This document shows positions 4,453 to 19,384 of a DNA stretch of 19,384 nt, one piece after another. A model generated the notes under the pieces. The model did no database searches. It was not told the origin of the DNA and saw nothing but the letters and a program-made list of their open reading frames with translations. The DNA is taken from positions 1 through 19,384 of the forward strand of contig JAQGDQ010001954.1 in assembly GCA_030141605.1 (NCBI GenBank), in the 5' to 3' direction. The DNA comes from Tubiluchus corallicola (taxonomy: Eukaryota > Animalia > Priapulida). The stretch's first letter is position 1. Every line of letters starts with the position of its first letter. The position numbers and the translations under genes were made by a program.

Positions 4453-4530
4453 AGTGACATACGATAAAAATTACAACAATATTTCTTAAAAATATGTAAT
4501 TTAACATCGAGGAAACATGCTCTGATTATA

Positions 4531-5375
4531 CTATATATAGCATAGTATATATACTACTATACTATTCATATACCATATATATATATAGTATATATGGTAT
4601 AGTATGGTATATAGTATATATACATAGTATAGTAGTATATATACTATACTATATACATTAATAGTATATATATAGTATAGTATATATATAGTATATGGTA
4701 TATAGTATAGTACATATAGTATGTAGTATACTATACAGTATATAGTATATATAGTGTAATGCAGTGTAGTAAAGTGTTGTGTGGTGCAGTGTAGTGTAGT
4801 GTAGTGTAGTGTAGTGTAGTGTAGTGTAGTGTAGTGTAGTGTAGTGTAGTGTAGTGTAGTGTAGTGTAGTGTAGTGTAGTGTAGTGTAGTGTAGTGCGGT
4901 GCGGTGCGGTGCGGTGCGGTGCGGTGCGGTGCGGTACGGTACGGTACGGTACGGTACGGTACGGTATGGTATGGTATAGTGTGGTATAGTATAGTGTAGT
5001 TTAGTGTAGTGTAGTGTTGTGTAGTGTGTGTAGTGTAGTGTAGTGTAGTGTAGTGTAGTGTAGCGTAGCGTAGCGTAGCGTAGTGTAGTGTAGTGTAGTG
5101 TAGTGTAGTGTAGTGTAGTGTAGTGTAGTGTAGTGTAGTGTAGTATAGTATAGTGTAGTATAGTGTATATAGTATAGTATAGTGTAGTGTAGTGTAGTAT
5201 AGTGTAGTGTAGTGTTGTGTAGCGTAGCGTAGCATAGCGTAGCATAGTATAGTATAGTATAGTATAGTATAGTATAGTATAGTATAGTATAGTATAGTAT
5301 AGTATAGTATAGTATAGTATAGTATAGTATAGTATAGTATAGTATAGTATAGTATAGTATAGTATAGTATAGTAT
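4531..5375 (+). repeat. Compound microsatellite: degenerate TA-rich tract, then (TAGTG)n-(CGGTG)n-(CGGTA)n-(TGGTA)n-(TAGTG)n-(TAGCG)n-(TAGTA)n
   Basis: Direct reading. Confidence 0.95.
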
Positions 5376-6859
5376 GCTATATATGTATATATATATACTA
5401 TATATACTACTGTACTTATACATACTAGCCTATAAGATAATCCGGCTCAACTCTTATCCGATTTTTTACAAAGGAAAGTGTGAGAAAATATCTCAAAACT
5501 CACATTTGATATCAAGAGTTTTGTTGACAAACTGTTTGTTGACGAGCTCATGAGTAAACACAACACAAGTTAGTTGTTTTCCATCGTCCTCATCCTTGAA
5601 AACAAACGTCTCAGTACTTGATGCTGCTGCCAAACCTGTGCTGTTGATTACCGACGTATTTATGACCTTTTCTGAACCTACCTTGAAAATAACACTCACT
5701 CTTTTATCAAAGTCACTTTACGCAAAAAAATGACACTTATAAAGCACATCAACGCGACAAATTCCAAAGGTTTCTCATGACAACAACAATATGTTTACGT
5801 TGACAACCAAGAAGTGCTGCAAACTTCCAATTGTAGCTGCACAAACTGATTTTTCTAACAATCTACTGAGGAAATTTCATGTTTGTGGACATTGCTGTGT
5901 AGGCGGCTAAGATTGAAGCTGACAAAGATGAAGTTCAAGTGAAGATGAAGTGTCTCACAAATGAACAGTGAACATCATTAACCTTGTAGAAGAATTGTTA
6001 AAAGACTTGATGAACCATGCATAAACTATACAGTGCAATGGTGGATCGCTTGATTGAAGCTGATGAAGATGAAGTTTTAGAATACACAGCAAGTGAAGAT
6101 GAAGTGGATGTCTCACAAATGAACAGTGAACATCATTAACTTATTAGAAGAATTGTTAAAAGACTTGATAAACCATGCATAAACTATACAGTGCAATGGT
6201 GGATCACTTGATTGAAGCTGAGGAAGATGAATTTTTAGAATACACAGCAAGTGGAGATGAAGTGGATGTCTCACAAATGAACAGTAAACATCATTAACCT
6301 TGTAGAAGAATTGTTAAAAGACTTGATGAACCATGCATAAACTATACGGTGCAAAGATGGATCGCTTCATTTCGTCTTTGCTGTCCTCATACATCTATGC
6401 CGTCCTGCTGCAGAACTTGGTTTTGTCACTAACTGGGGCACCTCGATTGCCAGGTGGTCATTCTGTCCAGTTAGTAACACATATTAAGCCAAACTTTCTT
6501 GGGATAATTTGTTACCCCGCGTAGTCTTTATCGTAATACAAAAACCTTTTGTCGCTTAAGGGTTAAAAGCAATTATCGCCTATAATAAGCAACATATCGT
6601 CATTCATATTCAAGACTGAGACGCATTGCAGATTGGAATGAAGATCTCCCATATTCCCAGGGGCGGATTAAGGGTCTCACAAGCCTAAAGCTACAAAAAA
6701 ACGAAGGGCGTAAGCGTAACAGCTATAGATGCAAACTCTACTTCCAATTGTGCTATACTGCTGGCCTTGTAATCCATTCGCACAGAATACTTCAACGCAT
6801 AATTTTACTTATTTTGTCAAATTTTAACTTAAAAATAAAATATGTGACACCGTAACAAG
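5224..6859 (-). repeat. Right arm of the large inverted duplication
   Basis: Reverse complement of 1-~1640; mirrored ORFs 324-527/6333-6524 and 1165-1371/5493-5699. Confidence 0.95.
5504..5677 (-). CDS. Exon: second half of immunoglobulin domain 2
   Basis: Acceptor ttttcaaggtag|GT and donor AAAT|gtgagt; 174 nt, phase 1-1. Peptide GSEKVINTS...FKDEDDGKQLTCVV...KTLDIK(Y) carries the DDGxxLTC motif and completes the domain begun at 8905-9045. Confidence 0.85.
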
Positions 6860-10706: not shown

Positions 10707-10730
10707 CTGCGATTGGTTGAGCAGTGGTTT
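10707..10730 (-). CDS. Possible 24-nt linker micro-exon (ETTAQPIA)
   Basis: Donor GCAG|gtaatg; pyrimidine-rich acceptor gttcgttctttccacaag| (uncommon AAG) with a CTGAC branch-like motif about 30 nt upstream. Phase 1-1, so inclusion or skipping keeps the frame. Confidence 0.35.
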
Positions 10731-11017
10731 CTTGTGGAAAGAACGAACACGTGACATCGTCAGTTGTCTTCTGGTTGTCGTGGAATGCACTTCTCCTGTC
10801 TGCCTGCCGAGTGTCGTGGATTCCGTAAGAGTAGAAGCATTGTCATCAGGTTATGTTTTTTCTATTGTGTTGTTCTTCTCAGCCGTCCCTTTTGAATTCT
10901 AAGTTTTGGTTTTGTTGTTTCTTTTTTTTAAATTTCTGGAGTGTCCGTTATGCAGCGCTTACCCGCATCACCGATGGCGGCCCGTAAGGCTATCTACCGG
11001 GTCGAACCCCGGAACAC

Positions 11018-11074: not shown

Positions 11075-11269
11075 TTGTTGGCATGGTAACAGTTATGCTG
11101 TTGGCACTAACAGTGTCAGGATCATCAACACCATCATCATTACTGTTGCCATTATTTGGTTGTAGCTGCTACTGCGGCGGTGGTGGCAGCAACGGTGGCA
11201 GTAGTGGCGATGGTAATGGAGGTTGTGGTGAATGATATTCCTGTTGTGTAACAATACAGAGGTATCAGG

Positions 11270-12646
11270 ATAATCACATCAGTGAATGTAAGACTGTTCC
11301 ATGCCATGAGATCATGACAATCACATCAGTGAATGTAAGACTGTTCCATGCCATGAGATCAAGACAATCACATCAGTGCATGCAACACTACTCCATGCCA
11401 TGAGATCAAGACAATCACATCAGTGCATGCAACACTGCTCCATGCCATGAGATCATGACAATCACATCAGTGCATGCAACACTGCTCCATGCCATGAGAT
11501 CATGACAATCACATCAGTGCATGCAACACTGCTCCATGCCATGAGATCATGACAATCACATCAGTGCCTGCAAGACTGTTCCATGCCATGAGATCAAGAC
11601 AATCACATCAGTGCATGCAACACTGTTCCATGCCATGAGATCAAGCAATCACATCAATGCATGCAACACTGTGTCATGCCATGAGATCATGACAATCACA
11701 TCAGTGCATGCAACACTGTTCCATGCCATGAGATCAAGACAATCACATCAGTGCATGCAACACTGTGTCACGCCATGAGATCATGACAATCACATCAGAG
11801 CATGCAACACTGTGTCACGCCATGAGATCATGACAATCACATCAGAGCATGCAACACTGTGTCACGCCATGAGATCATGACAATCACATCAGAGCATGCA
11901 ACGCTGTGTCATGCCATGAGATCATGACAATCACATCAGAGCATACAACACTGTGCCATGCCACAAGGTCAAGCAATCACATCAGTGCATACAACACTGT
12001 GCCATGCCACAAGGTCAAGACAATCACATCAGTGCATACAACACTGTGCCATGCCACAAGGTCAAGACAATCACATCAGAGCATGCAACACTGTGTCACG
12101 CCATGAGATCATGACAATCACATCAGAGCATGCAACACTGTGTCATGCCATGAGATCATGACAATCACATCAGAGCATGCAACACTGTGTCACGCCATGA
12201 GATCGTGACAATCACATCAGAGCATGCAACACTGTGTCACGCCATGAGATCATGACAATCACATCAGAGCATGCAACACTGTGTCATGCCATGAGATCAT
12301 GACAATCACATCAGAGCATGCAACACTGTGTCATGCCATGAGATCATGACAATCACATCAGAGCATGCAACACTGTGTCACGCCATGAGATCATGACAAT
12401 CACATCAGAGCATGCAACACTGTGTCACGCCATGAGATCATGACAATCACATCAGAGCATGCAACACTGTGTCACGCCATGAGATCATGACAATCACATC
12501 AGAGCATGCAACACTGTGTCATGCCATGAGATCATGACAATCACATCAGAGCATGCAACACTGTGTCATGCCACAAGGTCAAGCAATCACATCAGAGCAT
12601 GCAACACTGTGTCACAGCCACGAGGTCAAGTCAATCACATCAGTGA
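11270..12646 (+). repeat. 45-47-bp minisatellite, about 29-30 copies (gacaatcacatcagagcatgcaacactgtgtcacgccatgagatcat)
   Basis: Direct periodicity; sequence variants are clustered along the array. Confidence 0.95.
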
Positions 12647-13092: not shown

Positions 13093-14599
13093 AAATGGTC
13101 AAAAAGTAAACACAAATAGGAAAAGGTAAAGACAAATGGTCAAAAATAATCACAAATGGTCAAAAAGTAAACACAAATGGTCAAGAAGTAAACCCAAATA
13201 GGCAAAAGGTAAACACAAATGGTCAAAAATAATCACAAATGGTCAAAAATACACACAAATGGTCACAACGTAAACACAAATGGTCACAAAGTAAACACAA
13301 ATGGTCACAAATTAAACACAAATGGTCACAAAGTAAACACAAATGGTCACAAATTAAACACAAATGGTCACAAAGTAAACACAAATGGTCACAAAGTAAA
13401 CACAAATGGTCACAAAGTAAACACAAATGGTCACAAAGTAAACACAAATGGTCACAAAGTAAACACAAATGGTCACAAATTAAACACAAATGGTCACAAA
13501 GTAAACACAAATGGTCACAAAGTAAACACAAATGGCCAAAAATTAAACACAAATGGTCACAAAGTAAACACAAATGGTCACAAAAAAACACAAATGGTCA
13601 CAACGTAAACACAAATGGTCACGAAGTAAACACAAATGGTCACAAAAAAACACAAATGGTCAAAAAGTAAACACAAATGGTCACAAACAAAACACAAATG
13701 GTCAAAAAGTAAACACAACACACACGAATGGTCACAAAGTAAACACAAATGGCCAAAAATTAAACACAAATGGTCACAAAGTAAACACAAATGGTCACAA
13801 AGTAACCACAAATGGTCACAAAGTGAACACAAATGGTCACAAATTAAACACAAATGGTCACAAATTAAACACAAATGGTCACAAAGTAACCACAAATGGT
13901 CACAAAGTAAACACAAATGGTCACAAAGTAACCACAAATGGTCACAAAGTAAACACAAATGGTCACAAAGTAACCACAAATGGTCACAAAGTGAACACAA
14001 ATGGTCACAAACAAAACACAAATGGTCAAAAAGTAAACACAAATGGTCACAAACAAAACACAAATGGTCAAAAAGTAAACACAAATGGTCAAAAAGTAAA
14101 CACAAATGGTCAAAAAGTAAACACAAATGGTCACAAAGTAAACACAAATGGTCAAAAAGTAAACACAAATGGTCACAAACAAAACACAAATGGTCAAAAA
14201 GTAAACACAAATGGTCACAAACAAAACACAAATGGTCACAAAGTAAACACAAATGGTCACAAAGTGAACACAAATGGTCAAAAGTAAACACAACACACAC
14301 GAATGGTCACAAAGTAAACACAAATGGTCACAAATTAAACACAAATGGTCACAAACAAAACACAAATGGTCAAAAAGTAAACACAAATGGTCACAAACAA
14401 AACACAAATGGTCAAAAAGTAAACACAAATGGTCACAAACAAAACACAAATGGTCAAAAAGTAAACACAAATGGTCACAAACAAAACACAAATGGTCACA
14501 AACAAAACACAAATGGTCACAAAGTAAACACAAATGGTCAAAAAGTAAACACAAATGGTCAAAAAGTAAACACAAATGGTCAAAAAGTAAACACAAGTG
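13093..14599 (+). repeat. 21-bp minisatellite, about 70 copies (aaatggtcacaaagtaaacac)
   Basis: Direct periodicity; explains all ORFs at 13219-14726. Confidence 0.97.
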
Positions 14600-14638
14600 G
14601 CTCGTACTGCCTAGAAAATTTAAAACTTCAAATCACAC

Positions 14639-15913: not shown

Positions 15914-16099
15914 CTCTATTTGTCTGGTAGACGCTCAAGTAGCCATCAAAACCACCACATATGGCAAAATTTTGTCGTCCTGTAAAGGCACCACCACACA
16001 CGGTATCACAGAATTGCTCATCCACTACTGACGCGTTCACGGGTGCGTCGAAGGCGCATACGCATTCATCGTAACCAGCTAATACTGCAAAATTTATTC
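15914..16099 (-). CDS. Exon of a WSC-FN3-Ig cell-surface/secreted protein: C-terminal half of a WSC domain
   Basis: Acceptor ttgtttttag|GA and donor AGAG|gtgagt; 186 nt, phase 1-1. Peptide GINFAVLAGYDECVCAF...EQFCDTVCGG...AICGGFDGYLSVY fits the WSC pattern (ECxC...CxxxCxG...CGG...SVY). Confidence 0.85.
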
Positions 16100-16166
16100 C
16101 TAAAAACAAGCAACATGCGCATTGTGATTATTACCATAATAAATTAATGCCTTGCGCTGTGGTGTG

Positions 16167-16205
16167 GTTGACCAGCTGACCAGTTGACCAGTTGACCAGC
16201 TGACC
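16167..16205 (+). repeat. 8-bp tandem repeat (gYtgacca) x5
   Basis: gttgaccagctgaccagttgaccagttgaccagctgacc. Confidence 0.85.
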
Positions 16206-16219
16206 TCCAACATGTGGAT

Positions 16220-16330
16220 CAGGGCCGGCCTTAAGCATAGGCAAACTAGGCAACCGCCTAGGGCCTCACCCTCCAGAGGGGCCTCACGCCGAGGTAACAT
16301 TTTTTTTGCTTTATGCGAACATGCTGCCTC

Positions 16331-16361
<31 letters not shown>

Positions 16362-16484
16362 CCTCTCTCTCTCTCTCTCTGTCCCTCCTCTCCTCTCCTC
16401 TCCTCTCTCTCTCTCTCCCCCTCCTCTCCCCTCTCCCCCTCTCCCTCTCTCTCTTTCTCTCTCACTCTCTCTCTCTCCCTCGCG

Positions 16485-16560
<76 letters not shown>

Positions 16561-16718
16561 CCTCTCTCTCTCTCTCTCTCCCTCCTCTCCTCTCCTCTCC
16601 TCTCTCTCTCTCTCCCCCTCCTCTCCCCTCTCCCCCTCTCCCTCTCTCTCTTTCTCTCTCACTCTCTCTCTCTCCCTCGCGCTCTCCTCTCTCTCTCTCT
16701 CTCTCTCCCCCCTCTCTC

Positions 16719-16758
<40 letters not shown>

Positions 16759-16903
16759 CCCTCTCTCTCTCTCGCTCTCTCACTCTCTCTCTCGTAAATT
16801 GCGTAATTTTATTTTTTTCGTTCTTATTTTTTATTTTTCTGTTTCATTTGGGGCCACCAAATTCACTTCGCCTAGGGCCTCCAATTACCTAAGGCCGGCC
16901 CTG
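16220..16903. mobile_element. hAT-like MITE with an internal (CT)n expansion
   Basis: Perfect 14-bp TIRs CAGGGCCGGCCTTA / TAAGGCCGGCCCTG; flanking direct repeat TGTGGAT (16213-16219, 16904-16910); subterminal cgcctagggcctc at both ends. Confidence 0.85.
16327..16793 (+). repeat. Polypyrimidine (CT)n tract with an internal ~200-bp duplication
   Basis: The block ending ...ctttctctctcactctctctctctccctcgcgctctcc occurs at ~16383-16490 and ~16581-16688. Confidence 0.95.
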
Positions 16904-17592
16904 TGTGGATGCTTGAAGCACAAGAAAACCCTTCATAAACATAAAGCTTACAAAATTCGTTTTGAAATTTTATATCACTTACATACTGCCTTTTTGCATG
17001 CAGGACTTCAATCGGCAGTCACGCTGTATAAAACATTTGTGTAAATTTAAACTCCCGCGATGATCGTTAGATGCAGCCATTTTCACAACAGGTCATTTGA
17101 AACAAGTTTAGATAACATTTTGTAAAGTTTGAAAAAATAATCAGAGCATTCGTAGCACACACGTCACTAACTAAATAAAATTTAAAATTACTGTATCTTG
17201 TCAATAATATTAAAAATACGTTTTTGGTTAGTGAGTGGTGACCCTGGAGGGTGAGTCAGCGACATTTTACCAATTGATGAAAACATTTTAAATAATTAAT
17301 AATTTTCTTTTCTAGTTACATAAGTCTTTCTAGTAGGTAAGGGAAAATCTAAGTAACATAGATTTGCACGGAAAGTCTGGAAACATAATTTAACATTGCC
17401 TTTTCTTCCCTTGATTTACGTTTGGTACATGACGTCATGTAATGGCGACTTCGGAACAGTATTGAGGGAGATTTAAAATGAAAACAAACTAAAATTGCTT
17501 TCAGTGCGAGTACGATATGTACATAAAATTGCTGTAAAGTAGTATAATTTTTAAGGCGATTTTTCTGAAACCTACTTCAGGTACCCCTTTTC

Positions 17593-17740
17593 TTGTCCCT
17601 TAATCCCTTCACAGACGAAGGAACTGATCATTGTGATGCTCTTTTGGAGCTTCGAGCGGATTATTCACTGAAAGGAGTTTTCAAAACGTTTAGCCATCCC
17701 ATGAATTTCTGGGCTACCCTGCTTGATATTCCAGAGAGAA
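17593..17740 (+). pseudogene. Fragment resembling a hAT (Buster/ZBED5/FAM200-like) transposase C-terminal region
   Basis: LNPF...DALLELRADYSLKGVF...MNFWATLLDIPE resembles the NPF...LIEL..D..LK..F...FW......PE pattern preceding the hAT dimerisation motif (recalled pattern, not a database hit). It breaks off where the ribozyme array starts. Confidence 0.5.
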
Positions 17741-17742
17741 TT

Positions 17743-17876
17743 TTTTCAGTAGCTTTCACCCTAGCGGGCCTCATCAGCTGAATAGAAAGTGTTGCTAACT
17801 TCAATGTCTTTATAGTCTCAAAGATTATAATGTTTATTCACGAGCTTTCACCCATGCGGGCCTCATCAGCTGAAAA
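17743..17876 (-). ncRNA. Tandem pair of minimal type I hammerhead ribozyme motifs (predicted double hammerhead)
   Basis: Minus strand reads ttttcag-CTGATGA-G-GCCC-gcat-GGGT-GAAAGCTC-gtgaata and, 92 nt later, tattcag-CTGATGA-G-GCCC-gcta-GGGT-GAAAGCTA-ctgaaaa. Confidence 0.8.
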
Positions 17877-17926
17877 GAAAGTGTTTTTAACCCGAAAATC
17901 AGTTATGAAGATTTAGTCCTCTCCCA

Positions 17927-19384
17927 GTTTACCAGCACTTTCTATTCAGCTGATGAGGCCCGCTAGGGTGAAAGCTCGTGAATAAACATCATAATCCTTG
18001 AGACTATAAAGACTTTGAAGTTACCATCACTTTCTATTCAGCTGATGAGGCCCGCTAGGGTGAAAGCTACTGAATGAACATCATAATCCTTGAGACTATA
18101 AAGACTTTGAAGTTACCATCACTTTCTATTCAGCTGATGAGGCCCTCTAAGGTGAAAACTCGTGAATAAACATCATAATCCTTGAGACTATAAAGACTTT
18201 GAAGTTACCATCACTTTCTATTCAGCTGATGAGGCCCGCTAGGGTGAAAGCTCGTGAATAAACATCATAATCCTTGAGACTATAAAGACTTTGAAGTTAC
18301 CACCACTGTCTATTCTGCTGATGAGGCCCGCTAAGGTGAAAACTCGTGAATAAACATCATAATCCTTGAGACTATAAAGACTTTGAAGTTACCATCACTT
18401 TCTATTCAGCTGATGAGGCCCACTAGGGTGAAAGCTCGTGAATAAACATCATAATCCTTGAGACTATAAAGACTTTGAAGTTACCATCACTTTCTATTCA
18501 GCTGATGAGGCCCGCTAGGGTGAAAACTCGTGAATAAACATCATAATCCTTGAGACTATAAAGACTTTGAAGTTACCATCACTTTCTATTCAGCTGATGA
18601 GGCCCACTAGGGTGAAAGCTCGTGAATAAACATCATAATCCTTGAGACTATAAAGACTTTGAAGTTACCATCACTTTCTATTCAGCTGATGAGGCCCTCT
18701 AAGGTGAAAACTCGTGAATAAACATCATAATCCTTGAGACTATAAAGACTTTGAAGTTAGCATCACTTTCTATTCAGCTGATGAGGCCCGCTAGGGTGAA
18801 AGCTCGTGAATAAACATCATAATCCTTGAGACTATAAAGACTTTGAAGTTACCATCACTTTCTATTCAGCTGATGAGGCCCGCTAGGGTGAAACCTCGTG
18901 AATAAACATCATAATCCTTGAGACTATAAAGACTTTAAAGTTAGCAACACTTTCTAATCAGCTGATGAGGCCCGCAAGGGTGAAAGCTCGTGAATAAACA
19001 TCATAATCTTTGAGACTATAAAGACTTTAAAGTTAGCAACACTTTCTAATCAGCTGATGAGGCCCGCAAGGGTGAAAGCTACTGAATAAATATTATAATC
19101 TTTGAGACTATAAAGACTTTGAAGTTACCATCACTTTCTATTCAGCTGATGAGGCCCTCTAAGGTGAAAACTCGTGAATAAACATCATAATCCTTGAGAC
19201 TATAAAGACTTTAAAGTTAGTAACACTTTCTAATCAGCTGATGAGGCCCGCAAGGGTGAAAGCTCGTGAATAAACATCATAATCTTTGAGACTATAAAGA
19301 CTTTAAAGTTAGCAACACTTTCTAATCAGCTGATGAGGCCCGCAAGGGTGAAAGCTACTGAATAAATATTATAATCTTTGAGAC
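17927..19384 (+). ncRNA. Tandem array of 92-bp units, each with a minimal type I hammerhead ribozyme motif (16 copies, runs off the window)
   Basis: CTGATGA at 17950, 18042, 18134, 18226, 18318, 18410, 18502, 18594, 18686, 18778, 18870, 18962, 19054, 19146, 19238 and 19330. Each is followed by a stem II (mostly GCCC-N4-GGGT), GAAA and CTC/CTA, and flanked by stem I strands tattcag / (c/g)tgaata. Confidence 0.85.

Follow-up and report, generated by a model that had tools for sequence, protein, structure and literature searches.

The inverted pair of hammerhead motifs near the right edge of the window (the whole stretch of Tubiluchus corallicola DNA analysed here, 19,384 nucleotides) is probably the inverted end of a 92-nt retrozyme array, left by what was likely a Penelope-type insertion, predicted to be hairpin-locked in host pre-mRNA and likely non-cleaving. 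The original prediction was that the pair adopts a double-hammerhead fold and could cut the pre-mRNA of the gene in which it probably lies. The evidence points to a common retrozyme insertion over a pre-mRNA-cutting ribozyme, and what counts for this reading are the motifs themselves, the array, its head-to-head layout with the inverted piece, a transposase relic cut at the junction and the membership of the element in a multi-locus family. The parts of the element are as follows.

17740 to 17890, minus strand: whole inverted piece, about 1.65 units, recognised by identity to array units 1-2.
17743 to 17784, minus strand: hammerhead motif of inverted copy 2, from core and stems in the sequence.
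17835 to 17876, minus strand: hammerhead motif of inverted copy 1, from core and stems in the sequence.
17891 to 17928, plus strand: 38-nt spacer, the loop of the predicted hairpin, from its position between piece and array.
17929 to 19384, plus strand: tandem array of period 92 and 15.8 copies with one type I hammerhead motif per unit, from repeat and motif scans.

Read on the minus strand, copy 1 has the 5' arm UUUUCAG (17876-17870), a CUGAUGA core starting at 17869, stem II GCCC/GGGU, GAAAGCUC, and then GUGAAUA as its 3' arm, while copy 2 has the 5' arm UAUUCAG, a core starting at 17777, GAAAGCUA, and the 3' arm CUGAAAA (17749-17743) with the changed letter at 17744. Within 17876-17743 the two motifs are spaced 92 nt apart. 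All arms are therefore present as they had been described, and so is the predicted cut of copy 2 between 17750 and 17749; a second predicted cut, in copy 1, falls between 17842 and 17841, where a G.G adjoins the core. The ordered type I core (CUGANGA, GAAA and UH, with stem I at the open end) is found in both inverted copies and in 16 array units. Cross-pairing agrees with the original prediction as well: stem I formed by copy 1 with copy 2 pairs at 7/7 positions, stem I of copy 2 with copy 1 at 6/7 with the G.G beside the core, and AGCU/AGCU at 4/4, so that when cross-paired the hammerhead stems can be closed with 7 and 6 pairs in stem I, 4 and 4 in stem II and 4 in stem III. The further claim that as monomers both copies carry a stem I mismatch needs a qualification for copy 2, which alone still folds best with a 5-pair stem I and stem II. 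These features support naming the pair as type I hammerhead motifs whose helix III is palindromic, and for which the cross-paired topology is the correct one. Since none of the 14 Rfam matches at E up to 1 was a hammerhead, the name rests on the core and stem motif and on the descriptions in PMC4209133, not on Rfam family membership. A motif scan of metagenome contigs gave 0 stretches. In the usual numbering of hammerhead positions, all 18 copies have G10.1.U11.1 and not the G10.1-C11.1 pair of type I hammerheads. According to the excerpt of Cervera and de la Pena (2020; PMC7229834), G10.1-C11.1 is highly conserved and not invariant, an axolotl family having U.U; none of the matches listed in our literature search for data on G10.1.U11.1 contained the term U11.1.

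The array starts at 17929 and extends on its right side beyond the window edge at 19384. The inverted piece, oriented head-to-head with it, is identical to array units 1-2 at 137 of 150 positions, and the right part of the spacer, which resembles the loose ends beside the hammerhead motif at other loci of the family, is likely the 5' leader of the element. That the family occupies many loci was seen when one array unit recruited 150, 125, 55 and 49 contigs in runs X1 to X4, respectively, from two samples. Among the X1 contigs, the CUA+CUG form was the majority on copy 1 (16830 of 22523 depth at 17841, 13674 of 21036 at 17842), and for this reason the form with G.G next to the core, present in 13/16 local array units, looks derived. 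A second joint of opposite strands, at another place of the unit, was seen in two contigs each of X1 and X2, which together represent one sample. Coverage by the four runs was absent over 17915-17935 and came from X1 only over 17635-17704, neither of which is counted as evidence, and an X1 piece with 0 differing letters over 17740-17800 was set aside, a same-length X2 record having 9. Among the variant rows listed for these runs, none is for 17875, 17783 or 17744. On 17680-17800, runs X1, X2 and X4 also revealed other family loci with much shorter units of about 59-60 nt, with joints leading from 17790 or 17794 back to 17751, 16-19 letters between, and with a leader-like stretch directly after the predicted cut triplet. 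Within the array, the units at 18962/19054/19146 and 19238/19330 suggest a higher-order repeat.

The host gene reads on the minus strand, and its visible exons are listed below.

15914 to 16099, minus strand: exon running from phase 1 to phase 1 that encodes the latter half of a WSC domain, the first visible exon of the host gene.
14727 to 14639, minus strand: FN3-like exon, named by eye.
12974 to 12743, minus strand: FN3-like exon, named by eye, without a Pfam match.
10506 to 10165, minus strand: Ig exon.
9045 to 8905, minus strand: Ig exon.
About 5700 to 5504, minus strand: Ig exon.
2631 to 2344, minus strand: Ig exon.

The WSC-FN3-Ig gene looks intact, its minus-strand exons chain in phase, and the pair is in sense orientation to it, as had been claimed. 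WSC domains start with G-C-Y/F, and of 9 open candidate exons listed in 16130-17930, where the first WSC half was sought, 0 have such a start; two repeat elements take up the space, together with the hAT relic. Because the gene looks intact and the first half of its WSC domain is absent from 16130-17930, the pair likely lies in an intron, and the claimed intronic place stands at that strength, the upstream WSC exon having been looked for and not found in this interval. A homolog search with the WSC exon returned 19 candidates, of which 0 passed, and the Thr-rich stretch near 10707-10860 yielded no clean exon. Elsewhere in the window, a large inverted duplication (1-2230 and 4527-6855) includes a copy of a host C2-set Ig exon, minus-strand 5493-5714 recurring at plus-strand 1147-1368, and its arms would flank exon 2631-2344 within the pre-mRNA. 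There are also intronic minisatellites at 11264-12643 and 13093-14600, with periods of 47 (29 copies) and 21/42.

To the left of the junction lie two further features.

17605 to 17736, plus strand: relic of a hAT (FAM200-like) transposase, the likely insertion target, recognised by its peptide relatives.
16916 to 17603, strand not assigned: element of very high copy number whose terminal inverted repeats are imperfect, MITE-like, from run depth and repeat comparison.

Eight relatives of the hAT peptide passed; the best four are 77-86% identical up to the junction, two are named FAM200-like, and two have a weak Dimer_Tnp_hAT match under the curated cut-off. The similarity ends at DIPE, where the relatives continue with YKNL, YKDL or YNDL, which argues that the element broke the relic and places the A-run 1-7 nt from the junction. 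In the DNA of the relatives, 22 stretches fitted a pattern and 0 were confirmed. Positions 17737-17743 may belong to the element, or else be what a short deletion has left of the K-N-L codons. An ATT stands at 17740-17742 and also fits the element consensus; the excerpted account of Penelope-type insertion describes an AT-rich target with ATT at the cut (PMC11167929). The element at 16916-17603 ends in TTAA, is inserted at the hAT relic's left edge and fills most of the space from the WSC exon to the pair. Beside it, the element at 16220-16903 has 14-nt perfect terminal inverted repeats and an inner long CT microsatellite, and is flanked on both sides by a 7-nt direct repeat.

What decides against cleavage of the pre-mRNA is the array, which the original prediction left out. 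In a minus-strand transcript coming from beyond 19384, the antisense of at least 15.8 units precedes the pair, 38 nt upstream. The stretch 18110-17720 folds into a single hairpin (-260.7 kcal/mol, z -30, reached by 0/100 shuffles), in which 135 of the pair's 148 nt are predicted to be bound to 17929 and beyond and both cores have a pairing probability of 1.000. To impose the double hammerhead takes 169-175 kcal/mol over the ensemble in transcripts of three lengths, as against 14-16 kcal/mol when the array is left off. These energies do not include tertiary contacts, proteins or kinetics, and the excerpt of PMC11167929 reports that a Penelope hammerhead required protein for cleavage, a caveat on the hairpin reading. 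The best array pair costs 15.0 kcal/mol by the same method, so costs of 10-16 cannot separate active from inactive pairs, and it is the added 155-160 that does. Even alone, the pair folds best by joining two UCAGCUGA palindromes, carried by 17/18 copies, in an inactive form that hides both cores. Since the antisense array would be made first, capture in the hairpin during transcription is likely. The active fold is thus predicted not to be accessible in host pre-mRNA and, with the pair predicted to be locked against the antisense array, a cut of the host transcript is unlikely; the claim of cleavage finds no support. It is highly improbable that a double hammerhead cuts the pre-mRNA with its compensation kept by selection: this would fit the sense orientation, the likely intronic place and the perfect cross stem I, and it is opposed by the penalty of about 170 kcal/mol in the pre-mRNA and by an arrangement that is young, confined to a single locus and marked by 6 private letters. 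In addition, by an account of two earlier studies (PMC2995048, in excerpt), splicing went on although a slow hammerhead had cut the intron, and cleavage itself may therefore be without effect.

The compensation in stem I stands on the other side. The changed letters at 17875 and 17744 face each other and pair, as had been claimed, and are absent at those columns from 16/16 array units; they are, however, two of 6 private letters in about 150 nt of the inverted piece and not its sole departures, and 3 of these 6 are found no more than 5 nt from one of its ends. With 6 random changes, the probability of at least one compensatory pair is 0.0056 in the cross stem I and 0.0104 in any helix, and with 8 changes 0.010 and 0.020. 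Such compensation is uncommon by chance at one locus (0.6-2%) and is to be expected at one locus or another when a family has many, a 1% event over 100 loci having a 63% chance of one appearance. The swap brings the cross duplex from -3.7 kcal/mol with the mismatch to -5.7, a gain of about 2 kcal/mol. In the isolated pair, the double fold beats two monomers by 2.8-3.1 kcal/mol, whereas monomers are better in 15/15 array pairs, and a 7-pair stem I together with a 4-pair stem III is otherwise intact in only 1/15 adjacent array pairs. These three points, the low chance of compensation, the double fold favoured only here and the two intact stems, count against the hairpin and insertion reading. 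The covariation consists of a single pair next to an insertion junction, and the array itself tolerates stem I changes without compensation, the uncompensated arm UAAUCAG occurring in 4/16 units. A full AGCU/AGCU stem III occurs in only 3/15 adjacent array pairs, all 3 in the order CUC-then-CUA, as in the inverted pair.

The same points would be explained if the pair were a two-unit retrozyme that is active and transcribed leftward on its own from the head-to-head junction, with the U-A swap either passed on by a parent dimer functional only when cross-paired or selected in that dimer, and this we consider unlikely. It would account for intact cross stems I and III, for a double fold preferred to monomers only here and for a compensation uncommon by chance; the CUC-then-CUA order is present 3 times in the array, and bidirectional promoters have been argued for Penelope pLTRs (PMC3846280, in excerpt). 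Yet the active fold exceeds the ensemble by 10.7-16.2 kcal/mol even when the array is absent, G10.1.U11.1 is in every copy, the letters at 17875/17744 are in none of the array units, and a scan of 17880-18120 found no box A and a single loose box B match. A sigma-70 scan found nothing and is irrelevant for an animal locus. Very doubtful is the extension in which this junction-driven two-unit RNA is a coevolved obligate double hammerhead that host read-through switches off in the 135-pair hairpin; if true, it would provide natural compensatory evidence for the dimer fold, and the hairpin could be a source for editing, or for small RNAs that silence the family as a whole.

Finally, the two letters might have no function, having been matched by copying (fold-back or template switch), or 17744 might be an allele or an assembly slip in a T-run. 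Position 17744 belongs to a run of six T, at 1-7 nt from the junction, the changes at 17875 and 17744 each close the one gap in a homopolymer run, and the single contig that spans the junction differs at 1 letter in 17680-17774, its place not given. Against these stand a complementarity that stops at the 7 pairs, array singletons of which only 2/7 copy their neighbour, and a neighbour-copy bias that raises the chance just from 0.010 to 0.013, and we regard this explanation as quite improbable.

Under the preferred reading of an inverted retrozyme end, a hammerhead-repeat element, probably mobilised by a Penelope-like reverse transcriptase/endonuclease, would have inserted into an old hAT relic within a likely intron, leaving an inverted two-unit end piece head-to-head with the array. 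Host read-through would transcribe the antisense array before the pair, a hairpin of about 135 pairs would then form, and it would block the double hammerhead in the pre-mRNA. The U-A swap in stem I would be a coincidence of the junction-side 17744 with the private 17875 and not the outcome of selection for a host function. Activity of the pair would be expected at best in its own transcripts, as for other dimer-type hammerhead repeats. Had the original prediction been right, the locus would have offered a transposon-derived ribozyme cutting host pre-mRNA and a natural covariation for the double-hammerhead fold; as it is, its value is small: it illustrates a retrozyme array whose end is inverted in the Penelope manner, and it recalls that ribozyme copies on the sense strand of introns are likely silenced by such a layout.

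Inverted Alu-type repeat pairs in introns form long intramolecular double-stranded RNA, and two opposite copies of one repeat likewise give a long predicted duplex here, with the difference that the repeat is a ribozyme unit. The pair also shares with the double-hammerhead fold of tandem repeats of Forster et al. (1988), as described in the excerpt of PMC4209133, its cross-paired topology through AGCU/AGCU, and differs from it in that the upstream antisense array is predicted to block the fold in read-through RNA. In Penelope-like elements, an inverted 5'-truncated copy lies beside the 5' end, mostly head-to-head (PMC8557442, PMC3846280, in excerpt), and minimal hammerheads are found 100-700 bp apart on opposite strands (excerpt of PMC4209133). 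The inverted piece is likewise a truncated inverted copy beside the 5' end in head-to-head orientation. Compared with the elements as these excerpts describe them, the locus has no reverse transcriptase ORF, its stem II has 4 pairs closing with G.U and not G-C, and its junction is a 38-nt spacer and not a palindrome. Among the matches listed in a literature search, none gave an account of the exact head-to-head layout, from which we do not claim that it is absent from the literature.

The closest systems are the non-LTR retrozymes of animals (Cervera and de la Pena, 2020; Li, Clavereau and Pollet, 2026; both in excerpt), which the latter preprint (10.64898/2026.07.22.740005) derives from Penelope-like elements. 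Like them, the Tubiluchus array consists of non-coding tandem units with one type I hammerhead each, has a GC content of about 40% and is present at many loci. Intronic copies are common among them, about 42-44% of retrozyme copies in two Xenopus species (excerpt of 10.64898/2026.07.22.740005), and the present one is likely intronic, while amphibian retrozyme motifs were most active as dimers (excerpt of PMC7229834). The 92-nt unit is shorter than the 150-450 bp given in PMC7229834 and inside the 51-972 bp given in 10.64898/2026.07.22.740005, as excerpted. It differs from those retrozymes in that 13/16 of the local units have the G.G beside the core. The working definition of a non-LTR retrozyme in the excerpt of the 2026 preprint calls for two successive units or more carrying a type I motif and an energy below -5 kcal/mol, and the 4 of 18 motifs that were folded gave -9.3 to -13.2 kcal/mol. 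We conclude that the locus is a new family member but not a new kind, namely a non-LTR retrozyme array whose end is inverted as in Penelope-like elements.
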